Below, piece by piece: positions 7,579 through 54,318 of a stretch of 64,000 nt of DNA. Position 1 is the first letter of the stretch. Every line of letters begins with the position of its first letter. The stretch lies in the NCBI RefSeq assembly GCF_054482595.1, contig NZ_CM137008.1; one strand, given 5' to 3'. A model generated the notes under the pieces. It did no database searches, was not told where the DNA came from, and saw only the letters and a list, made by a program, of their open reading frames with translations. Position numbers and translations under genes: made by a program.

Positions 7579-8715
7579 TTACTCCGCCAGAAAAAGCTCC
7601 AGCAGCGAATTTAAAAACAGCTTCCCATGTTCCGTTATTTGCCAGTAATCCGCACATTCTGTGAGATAACCCTGAGCGATAGCCTCTTCTAACTGTGGGC
7701 GAATAACTTCTTCAGAAAGGCCAGTATACTGGCTAAACTCCATGCGCGGCGCGGCCTCCAGCAGACGGAAGCGATTCATAAAGAACTCAAACGGCTTATC
7801 TGCGGCTTCGACATCACGCTGGCTTTCCAGATACCTTCCTTGCATAAAACCACGCGGGTGACGCGTTTTGGTGGTACGCAGAATGCGACCATCCGGGAAG
7901 GTGACTTTGCCGTGCGCGCCGCAGCCAATACCGATGTAGTCACCAAATCGCCAGTAGTTGAGATTGTGCTGGCACTGATAACCGGGTTTGGCGTAAGCGG
8001 AAGTTTCATATTGCTGATAACCCGCTGCGGTTAATAACTGATGCCCCTGTTCGAAAATATCCCACAGCGCGTCATCGTCCGGCAGCACCGGTGGTCGCGA
8101 ACCAAACAGCGTATTGGGTTCGATGGTCAGTTGATACCAGGAAAGATGCGGCGGATTCAGTTCAATGGCCTGGCGTAGATCGCCAAGCGCCTCTTCCAGT
8201 GATTGATCCGGCAGCCCATGCATCAAATCAAGGTTAAAGCTACGCAGCCCCAGCCCGCTCGCCAGCTTTGCCGCTCGATTCGCTTCTTGCGGGCCATGAA
8301 TACGCCCAAGTCGTTTCAGCTTTTCTTCGCTAAAACTCTGCACACCAATAGAGATGCGGTTCACACCAGCACGCTGATAATCGACAAAGCGATCCGCTTC
8401 TACCGTGCCTGGGTTCGCTTCCATAGTAATTTCTGCATCCGCTGCCAGCGGCAAACGCGCACGCACGCCGTCCAGCAGCGTTTGCATCGCCGGGCCGGAA
8501 AGCAGGCTCGGCGTACCACCGCCAATAAAGATTGTCTTTACTTCACGGCCCTGAGCGTAAGCCACATCATTGTCCAGATCGCAAAGCAGATGCTGAACAT
8601 AATCGTCGTGCGGCACTTCTCCTTTCAACGCGTGAGAGTTGAAATCGCAGTACGGGCATTTCTGCACGCACCACGGGATGTGAATGTAGAGACTCAGCGG
8701 CGGTAATTTAACCAT
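7579..8715 (-). CDS. hemW: Radical-SAM heme chaperone HemW (YggW)
   Basis: 378-aa ORF with CxxxCxxC radical-SAM motif ([10 protein letters not shown]). Confidence 0.95.
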
Positions 8716-9301
8716 TACGTAAAGCGTCCAGCAGCAGTTTCAATGCCTGACCACGGTGGGAAATGGCGCTCTTTTCTTCGCGGGTCAGTTCGGCAGCGGT
8801 TTTCCCTTCGGAAGGTACGAAGAAGATTGGATCATAACCAAAGCCGCCAGTACCCGCTGGTTCACGAGTAATCATGCCCGGCCAACTACCGTGGCACACC
8901 AGCGGAGTCGGATCTTCCGCGTGACGCAGATATACCAGCACGCAGTGGAAACGCGCCTGACGTTGGTCGTCCGGTACGTCTTTCAGTGTTTCCAGCAGTT
9001 TTTGCAGATTCTTTTGATCGGTCGCGTCTTCACCGGAATAACGCGCGGAGTAAATCCCCGGCGCACCGCCAAGTACATCTACCGCCAGACCGGAGTCGTC
9101 GGCAATTGCCGGTAAACCGGTCACTTTTGCCGCATGGCGCGCTTTCAGAATCGCGTTTTCGATAAAGGTCAGGCCGGTTTCTTCAGCGGAATCTACGCCG
9201 AGGTCTGTTTGGGCCACGATATCAAGACCGAAGTCGCTAAGCAGCGACGCCAGCTCACGCACTTTACCGGCATTGCCGGTTGCGAGGACAACTTTTTGCA
9301 T
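8708..9301 (-). CDS. rdgB: dITP/XTP pyrophosphatase
   Basis: 197-aa ORF matching RdgB/Ham1 ([21 protein letters not shown]...); 8-bp overlap with hemW. Confidence 0.95.
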
Positions 9302-9308
9302 AGGATAC

Positions 9309-9599
9309 CTAATTAATTAACGCCGCGATTTCTGGCGGGATTTGTTGCGGATTAATGATTTTAATTTGTTTGTGGCGGCCAAGTTCGCCTTTTTCAATCA
9401 CCACCTGGCTTTTGGCAACCCGGAATTGCTTACCGAGGAACTTCACCAGATGGCTGTTGGCCTGACCGTCAACCGGTGGCGCGGTAATGGCGACTTTTAC
9501 CTCGTCGCCATGTAAACCGACAATAGAATCACGGCTGGCTTTCGGCTGAATATAGAGCCGTAAAACCAGACCGTCATCATTAACTGTTACGGCACTCAT
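9309..9599 (-). CDS. yggU: DUF167 protein YggU
   Basis: ORF 9309..9611; probable start at the internal Met ([24 protein letters not shown]...); overlaps the yggT stop. Confidence 0.85.
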
Positions 9600-10162
9600 A
9601 ACGCCATCCACAGCCCCGGCAGCAGCATGTTTCCGGTTGCCTGTAATACTTCTGCGACACCCATATTGATGACATACAGCAGCAGAACGAGGATCATCGG
9701 CGAGAAATCAATCCCACCCATTGCTGGTAGCAGGCGGCGAATCGGGCGCAGCAGCGGATCGGCCAGCTGAATCAGCACGTATTCAATCGGGCTACGACCC
9801 TGGCTTACCCAGCTCATAATCGCCATCACCAGCAGGACCCAGAAAATCAGCAGGCCGATGGTTTTCAGCAGAATCAGTAAACCGGCAATCCAGATGATTG
9901 GCAGGAAGGTCACCACTTTAAACAGCACAATGGCTTTGATAAAACTGAGAATATAGGCAACCAGCAGCGAGGCGCTGTCAATGGGTCCCATTGCCGGAAT
10001 AACGCGGCGCAGTGGCCCGATAATTGGCTGCGTTACCTTCACTACAAACTGTGAGAAGGGGTTGTAAAAATCACAATGAGCCCACTGCATCCAGATGCGT
10101 AATAACAGCACCATGGTATACAGCTCAATGACCGTTGAAAGCAGGAAAGTCAACGTATTCAT
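9596..10162 (-). CDS. yggT: YggT family inner-membrane protein
   Basis: 188-aa hydrophobic ORF matching YggT. Confidence 0.9.
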
Positions 10163-47195: not shown

Positions 47196-48521
47196 TTAAC
47201 GCATACAAAAGCGGTCGTAATGGAAGTTTTGGCTGGCAATCCCATTTTCATATAACCCTTTGCTGAGCGCTTTGGCAAAACTCTGTGGGCCGCAAAACCA
47301 GAAATGGGTGTCACCTTTATTTGCTATTTTATCAGTAAGATAGTGCGACTGTAGGCGCTCACCTTTATGCGCATCAAGCAGATGCAGTGTGACACTGGCC
47401 TGGGCACAAAGTGAGGTAAGTTTATCAACATACCATGCATCCTCGCTTCGGCTGACGCAATACCAGAGATCCACAGGAACACGGGACGCGCCATGCTGGT
47501 TCAGATACTCAAGCTGGGCGATAAAGGGGGTAATGCCGATGCCTCCAGCTATCCATACCTGGCGGGAGCAAGGGAGAGTAAAATCAAACTTTCCCCATGG
47601 CCCTTCAACGAGAGCGGACTGGCCGATTTTTATCGAGGATGCCAGAGTCGAGGTATAATCCCCTAAATTTTTGATGGCAAAGCGCAACGTGTTCTTCTCT
47701 ATTGCATATGAAGCGATAGTAAAAGGGTGAGACTCTTTACTGTGTGCGAACGTTAAGAATGCAAACTGACCCGGAGAATAGTCGATGGCATGTTCCAGCT
47801 CCAGTATGACTTCGGTAATTTGTCCCGGATGGTTAACAATACTTTTAATGGTGGCCTGATGCTTGTTTTTATTACCGTTTAATTTCAGCAGCGAAATGAA
47901 AGCCACAAAGACGCCTGGGATAGTAATTAAAATTAATAAATACGCAGCAGGAGTTTCCCACCAATATGATTTAAACAGTGCAGTAAATACATGAAAAGCA
48001 ATTGCCAGATAAAAAACGGGGAACAAACGGTGAACAAGATGAAATAAATGATAGGGAACTTTTTTGCTTAGAGACACGAAAACCATCGCTATCATAATAA
48101 ACATTGCACATTCACCCGCTAACAATCCCGCATGAAGCCAATTTTCTTGTACTGGCGTCAGGTTAATATCAACGATTTTACCAGGGTGAGTAAGCCAGCC
48201 AAAGGCGACGAATAACTGGGGTAATTTTTCATCCAGCCAGTGGGCGAAAGCAAAAGCGATGGCGCATATTCCTGCCCACTTATGTAATCGCCATGCTTTA
48301 TCCAGACCGCCCAGCATCTTGTTAAGCCATGATGAACGCAACGATAAGCACATCGTCAGCGTCATCAGACACCACGCAAGGGTTCCCGTAAAAAAGAGTG
48401 TGTTTTGTCGAATGAACCATATTAGCGCGATTGGCTTTTCACGAAAAATATCGCCGGATGACAAAAAAATAATACATGCGACAAAGCAAACCAACGTACC
48501 TGTAAGATTAGCTTTTTTCAT
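47196..48521 (-). CDS. NOX/ferric-reductase-like membrane flavocytochrome (six TM helices plus FAD/NAD(P)H-binding domain)
   Basis: N-terminal hydrophobic half with His pairs H-x13-H ([15 protein letters not shown]) and H-x12-H ([14 protein letters not shown]); C-terminal half with HPFT flavin motif, GGIGITPF nucleotide motif and C-terminal CGP; AT-rich codon usage. Confidence 0.8.
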
Positions 48522-48583
48522 TTTTTTATTTCATTTTGGCAGCGGAGCATAGAACAGTTCCATGCTCCCATTAAATAGAGTGA

Positions 48584-48844
48584 TTATTTATAGAAAATCA
48601 CAGTGGCGTGGATATAATTTTTACCGGAGAAAGAACTGATGTAGTAATTGCTGGCTTGTAACTCTTCCGCTTTCTCTTTGATTTGGCTTTCAACGCCCGC
48701 TGGGTTGCTATTGTGTGTAGACATGCTCACTTTTGATAACTGTTCAAGATTATTGTCCGGTTTGTGTATCTCGGTTGCTGCAAATGCATGTCCTGTGAGA
48801 GTGCAAAGAAATAACGCGGTAAATAAATTTTGCTTAATAGACAT
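48584..48844 (-). CDS. Secreted DUF1471 (YhcN/BhsA-like) small protein
   Basis: 86-aa ORF with signal peptide (MSIKQNLFTALFLCTLTGHAFA) and DUF1471-like C-terminus (SFSGKNYIHATVIFYK); AAGGAG SD 7 nt upstream; 16 nt after the upstream stop. Confidence 0.75.
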   Translation of the reverse strand: MSIKQNLFTALFLCTLTGHAFAATEIHKPDNNLEQLSKVSMSTHNSNPAGVESQIKEKAEELQASNYYISSFSGKNYIHATVIFYK

Positions 48845-48860
48845 AATAACTCCTTTTATA

Positions 48861-49490
48861 TTAAACGTAATGATTAAATACTTGTGTAATAAGATCAGGG
48901 ATTTGCGCTAATGCATTTTGCTCGGCGAGTTCGCGTCCCGGTTGGGTTTTGTCGACACCTTCTGCACGTAAAATATGTGTATTGGTAATGCCCATTAATT
49001 TCAGCGTGGCTTGCAGATAACTTTCCTGATGATCCAGCGCCAGATGTGCTTCATCGCAATAGATACCGCCGCGCGTCGAGACAATAAACGTCGGTTTATC
49101 CTTCAGTAACCCAACGGCGCCTGCAGAGCTAAAACGAAACGTTAAACCAGCCTGACACACCTGATCTATCCAGGTTTTGAGGCCAGATGAAACGCTGTGA
49201 TTAATCATCGGCGCGCCAATAATGAGCACATCGCACGATGCCAGTTCATCAATAGCGGCGTGGATATCATTCACCTCCTGCTGAATTTGTGCGTTCTTGC
49301 ACTCTGCTTTATCGCAAAGCGCCAGAAAGGTTTCTTCACGCAAATGGGGCGGCGGCGTCAGGCCAACGTCGCGATGAATAATTGTGGCTTGAGGAAAGTG
49401 TTGGCAAAGCGCTTCTACCAGCGTCTGGCTTAATTTCCGCGAACTTGAATGCTTAAGCATTGGGCTACTGTCGATATGAAGAATTTTCAT
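48861..49490 (-). CDS. AzoR-family FMN-dependent NADH azoreductase / quinone reductase homolog
   Basis: 209-aa ORF (MKILHIDSSPMLKHSSSRKLSQTLVEAL...) with the AzoR/AcpD flavodoxin-like pattern; first gene of a three-gene minus-strand operon. Confidence 0.8.
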   Translation of the reverse strand: MKILHIDSSPMLKHSSSRKLSQTLVEALCQHFPQATIIHRDVGLTPPPHLREETFLALCDKAECKNAQIQQEVNDIHAAIDELASCDVLIIGAPMINHSVSSGLKTWIDQVCQAGLTFRFSSAGAVGLLKDKPTFIVSTRGGIYCDEAHLALDHQESYLQATLKLMGITNTHILRAEGVDKTQPGRELAEQNALAQIPDLITQVFNHYV

Positions 49491-49497
49491 GGGCTTG

Positions 49498-49518
49498 CTC
49501 TCATTTCTGCGATGAGAG
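49498..49518. promoter_or_regulatory. Perfect 7-bp inverted repeat in the divergent LysR/operon intergenic region
   Basis: CTCTCAT-N7-ATGAGAG, 8 nt upstream of the AzoR-like start codon; candidate LTTR operator or RBS-sequestering hairpin. Confidence 0.4.
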
Positions 49519-49590
49519 AAGTTTAACTGTTGTTTATATGGTGATTAAATAGACATAATTGAACTTCATTGTTGTGAAAATAGAACAATC

Positions 49591-50487
49591 ATGATCGACT
49601 GGAATGATTATTACTACTTTGCCCTGATTGCCGATGAAGGCAGCTACAGCCAGGCGGCGCTGCGTGCGGGCGTGTCGAAATCGGTATTAAGCCGACGAAT
49701 GGCTGCACTGGAGGAGCGCCTTGGCGTACGGCTTATTCAGCGAACTACGCGGCGTCTGGCCCTGACGGCGGCAGGCGAACAGTTTGCTGTCGAATGTCGG
49801 GCGCTGATGGCGCAGGAGGAACGGGCTAGAGCGGTGGTGATGGCCGCCCAGGAAAGCCCACAGGGAATGCTGCGCGTCAGCGCGCCGGTATTTATGGCTG
49901 AAACATGGTTTGGTGAGTTTGTCAGTGAGTTTATCGCCCGTTGGCCCCTGGCGAAGGTGCAACTGCTGGCAATTAATCGCCCGGTGGATATGGTCGCTGA
50001 AGGCATTGATATTGCGCTGGTTACGGCTTCCGGCGCGCTTGCTGACTCGACGCTGCATTATAAAAAATTACATACCCAGGCTGATATTTTAGTTGCCAGT
50101 TCTCAGTGGCTGGCCCGCCATCCGCAGGTGAAAGCTATTGAAGATCTTAACCACGTCGACGGGATCCTTCGGCTGGCGAACAATGGCGGGAGCCAGTGGC
50201 AATTAATTAATGGCGAACAGGAGATTACGCTGCAGCCTGAGGCGCGTTTGCAGTCAAATAACCTTCGCGTCATGCTGCAAGCAGTACTTGGTGGGAATGG
50301 CGTGGCGTTATTGCCTCAATTTGCCTGTAAACAGGGGCTTGCGAACGGTGAACTGGTGCGCCTGTTTGCACCGTGGAGCGGCATACCCAGACCGTTGTAT
50401 GCTTTATTTGCGGGGCGAAAGGGGATGCCTGCCATTGCGCGATATTTTATGGATGAGTTAACCACGCGGCTTGCCAACGGGGTCTGA
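49591..50487 (+). CDS. LysR-family transcriptional regulator, divergent from the redox operon
   Basis: 298-aa ORF with N-terminal HTH ([36 protein letters not shown]) and LTTR effector domain. Confidence 0.85.
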
Positions 50488-52879: not shown

Positions 52880-53018
52880 AAAGCCCTCACCGAAGCGAGG
52901 GCTTGAAGGAGAAGGGTTATGATGCGACTTGTCATCATACTGATTGTACTGTTACTCATAAGTTTCCCAGCTTATTAACAGTCAGTCTCAGGGGAGGAGT
53001 AATCCTCCCTTACCCTTA
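52880..53018 (-). ncRNA. Sib-type antisense sRNA (antitoxin), copy 1; boundaries approximate
   Basis: Minus-strand -35 TTGACA (53053-53048), 17-bp spacer, -10 TAATTT (53030-53025); transcript would run antisense across the ibs ORF; 3' end estimated from the usual Sib length. Confidence 0.45.
52919..52978 (+). CDS. Ibs-family type I toxin, 19 aa (variant copy, Pro17)
   Basis: Read by hand: ATGATGCGACTTGTCATCATACTGATTGTACTGTTACTCATAAGTTTCCCAGCTTATTAA = MMRLVIILIVLLLISFPAY*; SD GAAGGAG upstream; below the ORF-track size cutoff. Confidence 0.75.
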   Translation: MMRLVIILIVLLLISFPAY

Positions 53019-53271
53019 CTCACTAAATTAGGTTAAAGAATCAACGATGTCAATCAGGGCGATGCGGGATGTATCGCCCTGAACCGATCATTTGATAGAC
53101 ACTTCATCGCCCACGTTTACTGCCGTAATTAATCCCTTATCCCTGCAATGTGTGTCTGTCTTACATGACGTTTTACGAGTGCGCTCGAAGAAAAAATTTA
53201 AAGGTAGATCAATGCGTTGTGCTTATTTAAAGAGAGTTTACGATGGCAGGGCAGCATGGGGCTGTAACGGT

Positions 53272-53410
53272 AAAGCCCTCACCGAAGCGAGGGCTTGAAG
53301 GAGAAGGGTTATGATGCGACTTGTCATCATACTGATTGTACTGTTACTCATAAGTTTCAGCGCTTATTAACAGTCAGTCACAGGGGAGGAGCAATCCTCC
53401 CTTACCCTTA
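53272..53410 (-). ncRNA. sibC: SibC-type antisense sRNA (antitoxin), copy 2; boundaries approximate
   Basis: Same promoter-like elements as copy 1, shifted by 392 bp (-35 at 53445-53440, -10 at 53422-53417); serA-ygfA intergenic position corresponds to K-12 sibC/rygC. Confidence 0.45.
53311..53370 (+). CDS. ibsC: Ibs-family type I toxin, 19 aa (IbsC-like, Ser17)
   Basis: Read by hand: MMRLVIILIVLLLISFSAY*; same SD and context as copy 1; matches my recollection of K-12 IbsC. Confidence 0.75.
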   Translation: MMRLVIILIVLLLISFSAY

Positions 53411-53470
53411 CTCACTAAATTAGGTTAAAGAATCAACGATGTCAATCAGGGCGATGCAGGTGTGTCGCCC

Positions 53471-54019
53471 TCACCACTCCCAGACTTTCGACGGTGTAAC
53501 CACCGCAGGAAGAGGGATATCCCACTCTTCAACGGGGAGTTTTTCCACCAACTGACAATCATGCGCATAACCCACCGGTTGCATTTTATAGTGCTGCCAG
53601 TTTTGTAAGGTCCGATCGTAAAAACCTCCGCCCATTCCCAGGCGCTGACCGTACTCATCAAAGGCGACCAGCGGTGTGATCAACACGTCTAATCGGGAAA
53701 GGGGTAGCACGTCACGCACATCCAGTTTTGGCTCATGGATCTTCAACCTGTTCATCACCAGTTCACTTTGCGGATGGTAATTCAGGAACAGCAAATTACC
53801 GGCACTAAAGGGATGCAAAACTGGAAGATATACGCGCTTACCGGCGCGCCAGAGTTGTTCTATAAGCGGCTGGGTGTCGAGTTCTCCATCAAAAGAGAGG
53901 AATACAGCGACCGTATGTGCCATCACCACCGGGGGATAAGTCATCATCCGGGTAGCGGCTTGTTGACCCATTTCCTGCTGTTGTTCCGGCGTTAACGTAC
54001 GACGACGTTGCCGAATCAT
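53471..54019 (-). CDS. ygfA: 5-formyltetrahydrofolate cyclo-ligase family protein
   Basis: ORF 53471..54217; start assumed at the internal Met (MIRQRRRTLTPEQQQEMGQQAATRMM...) giving 182 aa; an alternative in-frame ATG at 54073 gives 200 aa; the ORF N-terminal extension overlaps ssrS. Confidence 0.85.
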   Translation of the reverse strand: MIRQRRRTLTPEQQQEMGQQAATRMMTYPPVVMAHTVAVFLSFDGELDTQPLIEQLWRAGKRVYLPVLHPFSAGNLLFLNYHPQSELVMNRLKIHEPKLDVRDVLPLSRLDVLITPLVAFDEYGQRLGMGGGFYDRTLQNWQHYKMQPVGYAHDCQLVEKLPVEEWDIPLPAVVTPSKVWEW

Positions 54020-54082
54020 TTTGCGGATTTCTTGTCGGGATAATGTCAGTGGGAGTTCTGGTAGTTGCGTCATGGCTGGTGC

Positions 54083-54266
54083 CAGATAAGAAGGGAATCT
54101 CCGAGATGCCGCCGCAGGCTGTAACCCTTGAACCCTTGGTTCAAGGTGAATGTGTCGTCGCAGTTTTAAGGCTTCTCGGACGGACCGAGCATGCTCACCA
54201 ACCGCGGAGCGCCACATTCTTGTGGTATGAAATATCGGCTCAGGGGACTGGCCCGCTTGCGAACAT
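54083..54266 (-). ncRNA. ssrS: 6S RNA
   Basis: Minus strand reads AUUUCUCUGAGAUGUUCGCAAGCGGGCCAGUCCCCUGAGCCGAUAUUUCAUACCACAAGAAUGUGGCGCUCCGCGGUUGGUGAGCAUGCUCGGUCCGUCCGAGAAGCC...GGCAUCUCGGAGAUUCCCU, matching E. coli 6S RNA; lies between zapA and ygfA. Confidence 0.92.
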
Positions 54267-54318
54267 CTCAGAGAAATTTTGTCTTCACGGTTACTCTACC
54301 ACAGTAAACCGAAAAGTG

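Follow-up and report, generated by a model that had tools for sequence, protein, structure and literature searches.

The 64,000-nucleotide stretch of contig NZ_CM137008.1 (assembly GCF_054482595.1) that we analyzed, here called the window, contains a four-gene accessory island (positions 47196–50487) flanked by argP and rpiA. Three of these genes are read from the minus strand: an FMN-dependent azoreductase-like gene (48861–49490; Pfam Flavodoxin_2, 4e-41), which heads the operon, a DUF1471 gene downstream of it (48584–48844), and a NOX-like ferric-reductase/FAD/NAD gene, which is the last of the three (47196–48521). The fourth gene codes for a LysR-family regulator on the plus strand (49591–50487) and diverges from the azoreductase-like gene across an intergenic spacer of 100 bp with 33% G+C (49491–49590). 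The locus is 100% identical to that of E. coli strain XH990. Among 5426 complete E. coli genomes, 240–246 (∼4.5%) carry the intact island. Nearly all remaining genomes contain only a short LysR remnant beside rpiA, annotated as "LysR substrate-binding domain-containing protein" or as hypothetical. We take this remnant to be the K-12 pseudogene yqfE; a literature search for yqfE together with LysR returned no report.

The regulator of the window belongs to an uncharacterized subfamily related to CrgA and AphB, and CrgA (3HHG, E 1e-28) is among its closest solved relatives. The NOX-like protein (441 residues, encoded on the minus strand) is composed of the domains Ferric_reduct, FAD_binding_8, and NAD_binding_1. 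Among solved structures, its best relatives are 8qq7 and 8qt6 (E ∼6e-26), both deposited as "FAD-binding FR-type domain-containing protein" and presumably the NOX of Streptococcus pneumoniae. The protein also matches NADPH oxidase 5, and its gene shares an operon with the azoreductase-like gene also in the orthologous loci L092, L165, and L166. Possibly, this protein is the "EcNOX" that was chosen by Hajjar et al. in 2017 (PMC5676040). Further along the chromosome, two ibsC type I toxin genes and ssrS (6S RNA) lie just past serA (8420–8871 and 9595–9778 in the XH990 locus L001; ∼53000–54300 in the window). These are ordinary E. coli features with no relation to the repeat described below.

The spacer between the azoreductase-like gene and lysR contains a perfect inverted repeat, CTCTCAT-N7-ATGAGAG (49498–49518). 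A preliminary description of this DNA had pointed out the element in the 100-bp divergent intergenic region, and both direct reading and a repeat search confirmed it, with arms that are 100% complementary. In the sense of the azoreductase mRNA (minus strand), the repeat consists of a 5′ arm CTCTCAT (49512–49518), a 7-nt loop CGCAGAA (49505–49511), and a 3′ arm ATGAGAG (49498–49504). The 3′ arm holds the Shine–Dalgarno-like (SD) sequence GAGAG (49498–49502), and the 5′ arm represents the corresponding anti-SD sequence. The gap between the repeat and the ATG (49490–49488) measures 7 nt (49491–49497) instead of the 8 nt given earlier, and the SD-like sequence, correctly placed within an arm by the same description, sits in the arm on the side of the start codon rather than in the distal one. 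In the folded RNA, the stem is extended by a CTT (49519–49521) that pairs with an AAG (49494–49496) around a bulged C. This CTT shares two bases with the end of the predicted −10 hexamer (see below).

One base of the 3′ arm is polymorphic. Position 49503 is A in 231 and G in 15 of 246 complete E. coli genomes. The A allele corresponds to the perfect repeat, and the G allele, also found in two cryptic-clade Escherichia genomes, gives the mRNA sequence ACGAGAG with an uncompensated A·C mismatch, which lowers the stability of the stem to −6.6 kcal/mol. The persistence of an uncompensated mismatch in 15 of the 246 E. coli genomes and in two sister-clade genomes suggests that any constraint on the repeat is weak. 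On an RNA made from the plus strand, the same change from A to G would create a harmless G·U pair.

Taken by itself, the repeat stands out only slightly. When the 100-bp spacer is shuffled by mononucleotides, 6.5% of the shuffled versions contain at least one perfect 7-bp repeat with a loop of 3–12 nt. Within the 38 nucleotides that extend from the predicted −10 hexamer (see below) to the ATG, a repeat of this length appears in 1.5% of dinucleotide shuffles and in 0.7–1.0% of block-wise shuffles. Since the block-wise shuffles preserve the skew between the pyrimidine-rich 5′ half and the purine-rich 3′ half of this segment and give the same p-values, we can eliminate the possibility that the repeat is an artifact of composition. 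A value of p ≤ 0.02 is reached by 7.5% of 53 real gene-upstream 38-mers of the window. Because the repeat alone is only mildly unusual, the weight of any interpretation rests on comparative data.

These numbers also favor a serious rival to any functional reading, namely that the palindrome does nothing at all. In that case, chance or template-switch "quasi-palindrome correction" would have produced it in AT-rich noncoding DNA, where it would drift in and out of perfection. The mild improbability of the repeat (6.5% for the spacer, ∼1% for the 38-mer), the fact that ordinary gene-upstream windows are as good in 7.5% of cases, and the survival of the mismatch allele in E. coli and its sister clades are all consistent with this explanation. 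We consider it a real possibility, hardly less probable than our leading proposal, although some of the comparative data described further below speak against it.

Several simple assignments of the element could be discarded. An intrinsic terminator is excluded, as there are no terminator-like sites in 49300–49800 and neither arm is followed by a run of T. A search of the region against Rfam 15 returned no family match, only two chance-level snoRNA matches (E 0.58 and 1.5) that are far under the gathering thresholds. This absence excludes a known RNA family. No other copy of the repeat sequence occurs in the 64-kb window, even with up to two mismatches.

We turned to orthologous loci to learn how the intergenic region is organized. 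Pairs of divergent LysR and azoreductase-like genes were collected from species-representative genomes, with adjacency established by tblastn, and were complemented by contigs encoding intermediate homologues and by E. coli alleles. A metagenome scan with the promoter pattern CTATTTAATC-N10-CAAC-NN-TTA gave 68 matches, of which 11 were real loci; these comprised Escherichia-like alleles and one L088-type sequence, and added no new diversity. Read in the sense of the azoreductase-like gene, all orthologous pairs share a dyad beside the lysR start, an ATTT block, a second CAAC half-site, and a T-A-N3-T hexamer. The dyad reads ATTGTT-N10-AACAAT in Escherichia and its relatives, TCGTTG...CAACGA in Rahnella, and GTTCCA...TGGAAC in Idiomarina. 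In an alignment of 14 orthologues, the invariant columns are limited to the dyad, the ATTT block, the AC block, and T-A-N3-T, and not a single column downstream of the hexamer is invariant.

The dyad and the hexamer are separated by a constant 62 nt (61 nt in three lineages) across gamma-, beta-, and alphaproteobacteria (E. coli, Enterobacterales contigs, Rahnella, Ewingella, Hafnia-like bacteria, Idiomarina, Dongia, and Pigmentiphaga). In the window, the hexamer is TAAACT (49520–49525, minus strand); elsewhere it is TAGACT, TACACT, TATCCT, TACCTT (Dongia), or TATTAT (Pigmentiphaga), with the first T, the A, and the final T invariant among the 14 orthologues. From its fixed distance to the dyad, we take this hexamer to be the −10 element of the azoreductase-like operon and predict transcription to start near A49513, 7 nt past the −10. 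Two other hexamers were considered as an upstream −10 element and rejected: the last position of CATATA (49535–49540, minus strand) is not conserved, and AACAGT (49526–49531, minus strand) has lost its final T in orthologues L009 and L010.

The conserved dyad ATTGTT-N10-AACAAT of the window (49568–49589) is centered at −65.5 from the predicted azoreductase start. It has a single exact match in the window, and its TT-N10-AA core corresponds to the T-N11-A motif of LysR-type sites. This dyad is most likely the binding site of the divergent regulator. A degenerate second copy, ATTTAA-N10-AACAAC in the azoreductase sense (49529–49550), is a candidate activation site over the −35 region and the spacer; its ATTT and AAC blocks are invariant among the 14 orthologues. 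Together, the two elements cover ∼60 bp beside a poor −35. By its sequence, the intergenic region is predicted to be a standard divergent LysR-type control region with the recognition and activation sites (RBS and ABS) in the usual arrangement. On the opposite strand, TTGTTT (49530–49535)-N18-CATAAT (49554–49559) forms a putative lysR promoter (plus strand) with a start near 49566. A strict promoter scan did not pick up this promoter, and an A/T-rich xAxxAT hexamer is kept at its −10 position in the orthologues. With a start near 49566, the dyad would fall into the lysR leader, an arrangement that would fit autorepression.

A comparable control region has been described in Neisseria meningitidis, where the LysR-type regulator CrgA is likewise divergent from mdaB, the gene of a flavodoxin-fold NAD(P)H quinone/azo reductase (PMC2724274). 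CrgA uses two adjacent T-N11-A-type sites that cover ∼60 bp by the −35 (PMC2724274), which matches the pair 49568–49589 and 49529–49550. The palindrome at 49498–49518 differs from these sites in that it lies downstream of the −10, lacks a T-N11-A motif, and is not conserved in sequence. The paper on YcaN provided no usable operator motif for comparison.

In light of these data, it is highly improbable that the adjacent LysR regulator uses the palindrome as its operator, as had been proposed initially. The proposal has in its favor that the dyad lies within a divergent LysR intergenic region and that DNA contacts downstream of the −35 are known for some LysR-type proteins. However, it is the other dyad, at 49568–49589 and centered near −65, that is conserved with the regulator. 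The recognition helix GVSKSV[LI]SRR is shared by the regulators of the window, L088, L092, L163, and L165, and so the same helix occurs in orthologues with entirely different arms. The symmetry-related T/A pairs of CTCTCATCGCAGAAATGAGAG are spaced by N7, N13, and N17 but never by N11. Finally, RBS and ABS of LysR-type regulators usually occupy a stretch of 50–60 bp next to the −35 (PMC2724274), and the palindrome, which spans −5 to +16 relative to the predicted start, is outside this stretch.

The position of the repeat could also suggest an operator for a dimeric repressor outside the LysR family that sits over the start site in the manner of lacO. A perfect 21-bp dyad centered near +6 would be in a classic repressor position, and its Watson–Crick symmetry is perfect on both strands. 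We judge this explanation to be very unlikely, though somewhat less so than a LysR operator. The half-sites vary between orthologues (CTCTCAT, AATCCAT, CATTAACG, CCTGT, CCCC), the island contains no second regulator gene, and further copies with two or fewer mismatches are missing from the 64-kb window. An operator for another repressor would also leave unexplained why one of the arms coincides with the SD sequence.

Since the pairing always involves the SD while half-sites, which a protein operator would keep, are exchanged, the comparison points to a structure that acts in RNA. An RNA that includes the hexamer folds with a minimum free energy of −9.1 kcal/mol (z −2.83), a stability attained by 3 of 200 shuffles, and 88% of its SD window is paired. 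The RNA that begins at 49513 reaches only −2.5 kcal/mol (z +1.1), and 27% of its SD window is paired. Long and short RNAs differ in the same way in L088, L163, L092, L165/166, L007, and L010/011, and hence in most repeat-bearing orthologues. A plus-strand RNA of the region (49491–49525) would fold more stably (−13.2 kcal/mol, 14 pairs), owing to G·U pairs that extend the stem (GGGCUU/AAGUUU). Across the orthologues, the antisense RNA is usually slightly more stable than the sense RNA because it is G/U-rich, and this comparison is therefore uninformative as to which strand provides the RNA.

One RNA-based reading would be an ordinary 5′-UTR stem-loop in the main azoreductase mRNA, which could act as a constitutive translation throttle, as a stabilizer of the 5′ end, or as a structure that is opened by a signal. 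The SD sequence in the stem, the stability of the fold (−9.1 kcal/mol, z −2.8), and the retention of pairing in several orthologues are all expected for such an element. With generic SD-occluding stem-loops, such as repressor hairpins and RNA thermometers, the repeat shares a short stem that includes the SD, a greater stability than shuffled sequences, and, in some lineages, covarying pairs. Such structures are entirely part of the mRNA; by contrast, transcripts from the regulated promoter are predicted not to include the 5′ arm of the present repeat, and the region matches no Rfam family. For a leader hairpin, the mRNA would have to begin at 49521 or further upstream, but the start that follows from the conserved TAnnnT hexamer is ∼49513. 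The weak alternative −10 AACAGT (49526–49531, minus strand) would place the start ∼1 nt before the stem, but its final T is missing in L009 and L010. The −10 itself is part of the 5′ arm in L163, Rahnella, L018, and L048, where the arm could not be transcribed from that promoter. We therefore regard a stem-loop in the main mRNA as unlikely. Of the SD-occluding hairpin envisaged in the preliminary description, the SD within an arm, the stability above that of shuffled sequences, and a pairing that is kept or reinvented in several lineages have held up; the predicted start, on the other hand, would leave the LysR-dependent mRNA without the 5′ arm.

The most informative evidence on the role of the repeat comes from the way its arms change between lineages. 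We read the paired arms straight from the sequences, as MAFFT placed the L092 3′ arm one column out of register. In L088, whose protein is 75% identical to that of the window, the arms pair in the E. coli register as ATCTCA/TGAGAT, with the outer pair changed from C–G to A–T. L092 (63% protein identity) also retains the E. coli register with a perfect AATCCAT/ATGGATT, in which four pairs are changed on both sides. Other lineages contain unrelated repeats at the same place: CATTAACG/CGTTAATG in L163, CCTGTATT/AATACAGG in the Enterobacterales MAG L007, TATCCTGT/ACAGGATA in L011 (Rahnella), and AAACTAATG/CATTAGTTT in L018 (an Idiomarina genome). Some of these unrelated repeats reach 8–9 bp. Shorter pairings are CCCC/GGGG in L165/L166, where GGGG is the SD itself, and CCTTC/GAAGG in L048 (Dongia). 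An AATGAGA block is kept in L088, L164, L163, and L005; in L164 the pairing is lost.

The placement of the arms is more constant than their sequence. In the repeat-bearing lineages, the 3′ arm always lies on the SD or directly beside it. The first base of the 5′ arm falls on hexamer position 1–8, which places this arm at the predicted +1 or upstream of it, even in loci with leaders of 45–58 nt, and in L163, Rahnella, L018, and L048 it overlaps the −10 hexamer itself.

Five independent lineages carry a repeat at p 0.003–0.015 in dinucleotide or block shuffles. For comparison, base rates were 7.5% among the 53 gene-upstream windows and 2 of 54 among azoreductase-like genes without a LysR neighbor. 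A binomial estimate places the excess of five lineages over a base rate of 4–8% at ∼1e-3; in a wider sample, only the Enterobacterales orthologues show the enrichment. A significant repeat is missing from about half of the orthologous lineages (L164, L091, the Hafnia-like L093/L094, L014, L026, and L016), and near relatives of repeat-bearing loci often contain only imperfect versions (L164 compared with L088, L014 and L026 with L018, and L008 with L011).

For the functionless palindrome, these data cut both ways. Its absence from about half of the lineages and its imperfection in near relatives of its bearers are what drift would produce. Against drift stand the five lineages at p ≤ 0.015, the four double-sided compensatory changes between E. 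coli and L092 in the same register, and the nonrandom placement of the 5′ arm at the −10/discriminator and of the 3′ arm at the SD.

Two further observations concern loci with altered context. L005 (2880–3002) and L090, which are Pseudocitrobacter-like, have lost lysR and retain the dyad, the ATTT block, and the −10 upstream of the azoreductase-like gene. In both loci, the SD arm survives and the 5′ arm has decayed. The Hafnia-type loci L094 (1365–1500) and L167 (1065–1200) contain a leader insertion of ∼31 nt relative to L093. This insertion holds a palindrome of 9–10 bp made of A and T only, TTTAAAAAAT-GT-ATTTTTTAAA in L094, and the version in L167 (CTTCAAAAAATGCATTTTTTGAAAA) shows compensated differences.

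Masking of the SD by a hairpin, and exclusion of the 5′ arm from the RNA by the choice of start site, are both established for other systems, among them IS10, IS50, and pyrC; the RBS/ABS layout of LysR-type promoters is textbook knowledge. In pyrC and pyrD of E. coli and Salmonella, start-site switching reportedly governs an SD-sequestering hairpin, according to work from the Turnbough and Neuhard laboratories in the early 1990s. In pyrC, alternative starts 2–3 nt apart at one promoter are said to be chosen by the CTP and GTP pools. The present locus resembles these genes in that the 5′ arm is situated at the start site, so that the hairpin depends on whether transcription begins upstream of or inside this arm. 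In contrast to pyrC, the 5′ arm begins 2 nt past the −10 and overlaps it in several orthologues. Because the arm is too close to the −10 or inside it, no start from that promoter would include the whole arm, and a pyrC-like start switch can be excluded.

A closer parallel is provided by IS10, whose read-in transcripts fold back on themselves and thereby sequester the translation signals (Davis, Simons, and Kleckner 1985, cited in PMC13181058). Both IS10/Tn10 and, as predicted, the present locus place the 5′ arm of an SD-masking hairpin upstream of the gene's own start, so that RNAs begun outside are the only ones to include this arm and to be silenced, and the ribosome-binding site of the native RNA is open. 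Provided that the predicted start is correct, the azoreductase locus shows the same layout in silico, with the 5′ arm upstream of the start, the 3′ arm on the ribosome-binding site, and an open native RNA. The setting differs: here, the repeat belongs to a chromosomal, activator-dependent operon beside a divergent regulator, and not to a mobile element that faces outside promoters. Unlike that of IS10/Tn10, the stem is also short (7–10 bp), and both the read-in RNA and an effect on translation are predicted. A literature search with the phrase "fold-back inhibition" together with IS10 returned no paper.

Based on these comparisons, our leading proposal, which we advance tentatively, is that the repeat may provide an IS10-like fold-back protection against read-in transcripts. 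In this mechanism, LysR would bind to 49568–49589 and to the degenerate site 49529–49550, would activate the promoter with the weak −35 and the −10 TAAACT (49520–49525, minus strand) from a start near 49513, and would also repress its own promoter. The palindrome, from ∼−5 to +16, would lie at the downstream edge of this control region as an add-on rather than as an operator. Since transcription is predicted to begin within or past the 5′ arm (−5 to +2 of the promoter), the LysR-dependent mRNA should lack the hairpin and would present an open ribosome-binding site. RNAs begun further upstream would carry both arms; their sources could be spurious promoters within the AT-rich spacer or antisense transcription that reads in through lysR. 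Such RNAs would fold into a 10-bp hairpin with a buried SD and would not be translated.

The proposal of fold-back protection draws on the promoter geometry, from which we infer the start site, on the kept pairing, on the placement of the arms, on the in silico switch between long and short RNA, on the decay of the 5′ arm in L005 and L090 after loss of lysR, and on the IS10 precedent. The whole argument depends on the predicted −10. Counted against fold-back protection are the half of the lineages that lack the repeat, the mismatch allele, and an enrichment that is limited to Enterobacterales. The upstream neighbor of the repeat, which is the divergent lysR, also speaks against it. A conserved upstream promoter in the sense direction that could feed read-in RNA was sought in the orthologues and was not found.

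The only promoter-like match upstream of the repeat in the window is a sigma-70-like TCGGCA-16-AATAAT (49607–49634, minus strand) in the first codons of lysR, which is directed toward the azoreductase-like gene and is absent even in sister Escherichia. In the strain of the window, this site could supply the putative read-in RNA.

In a more general form, the same arrangement may represent a device of "start-site-gated translation". LysR-activated redox operons would embed an anti-SD sequence in the −10/discriminator region, so that only the start chosen by the activator yields a translatable mRNA. Such a device would have been kept or reinvented in Escherichia, other Enterobacterales, Rahnella, and Idiomarina. 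We offer this generalization as a conjecture that is rather less probable than not.

The present analysis corrects the map of this control region, in which the predicted LysR sites are 49568–49589 and 49529–49550 and not the palindrome. It also provides a ready-made operator prediction for an uncharacterized LysR subfamily that extends from E. coli to alpha- and betaproteobacteria. If the proposal of fold-back protection is wrong, the repeat would be another short intergenic palindrome. If it is correct, a trick that insertion sequences use against outside promoters would also operate at an activator-dependent chromosomal operon, where it would tighten the off state at the translational level. 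In that case, 5′-UTR hairpins that are predicted from DNA may occur only in noncanonical transcripts.
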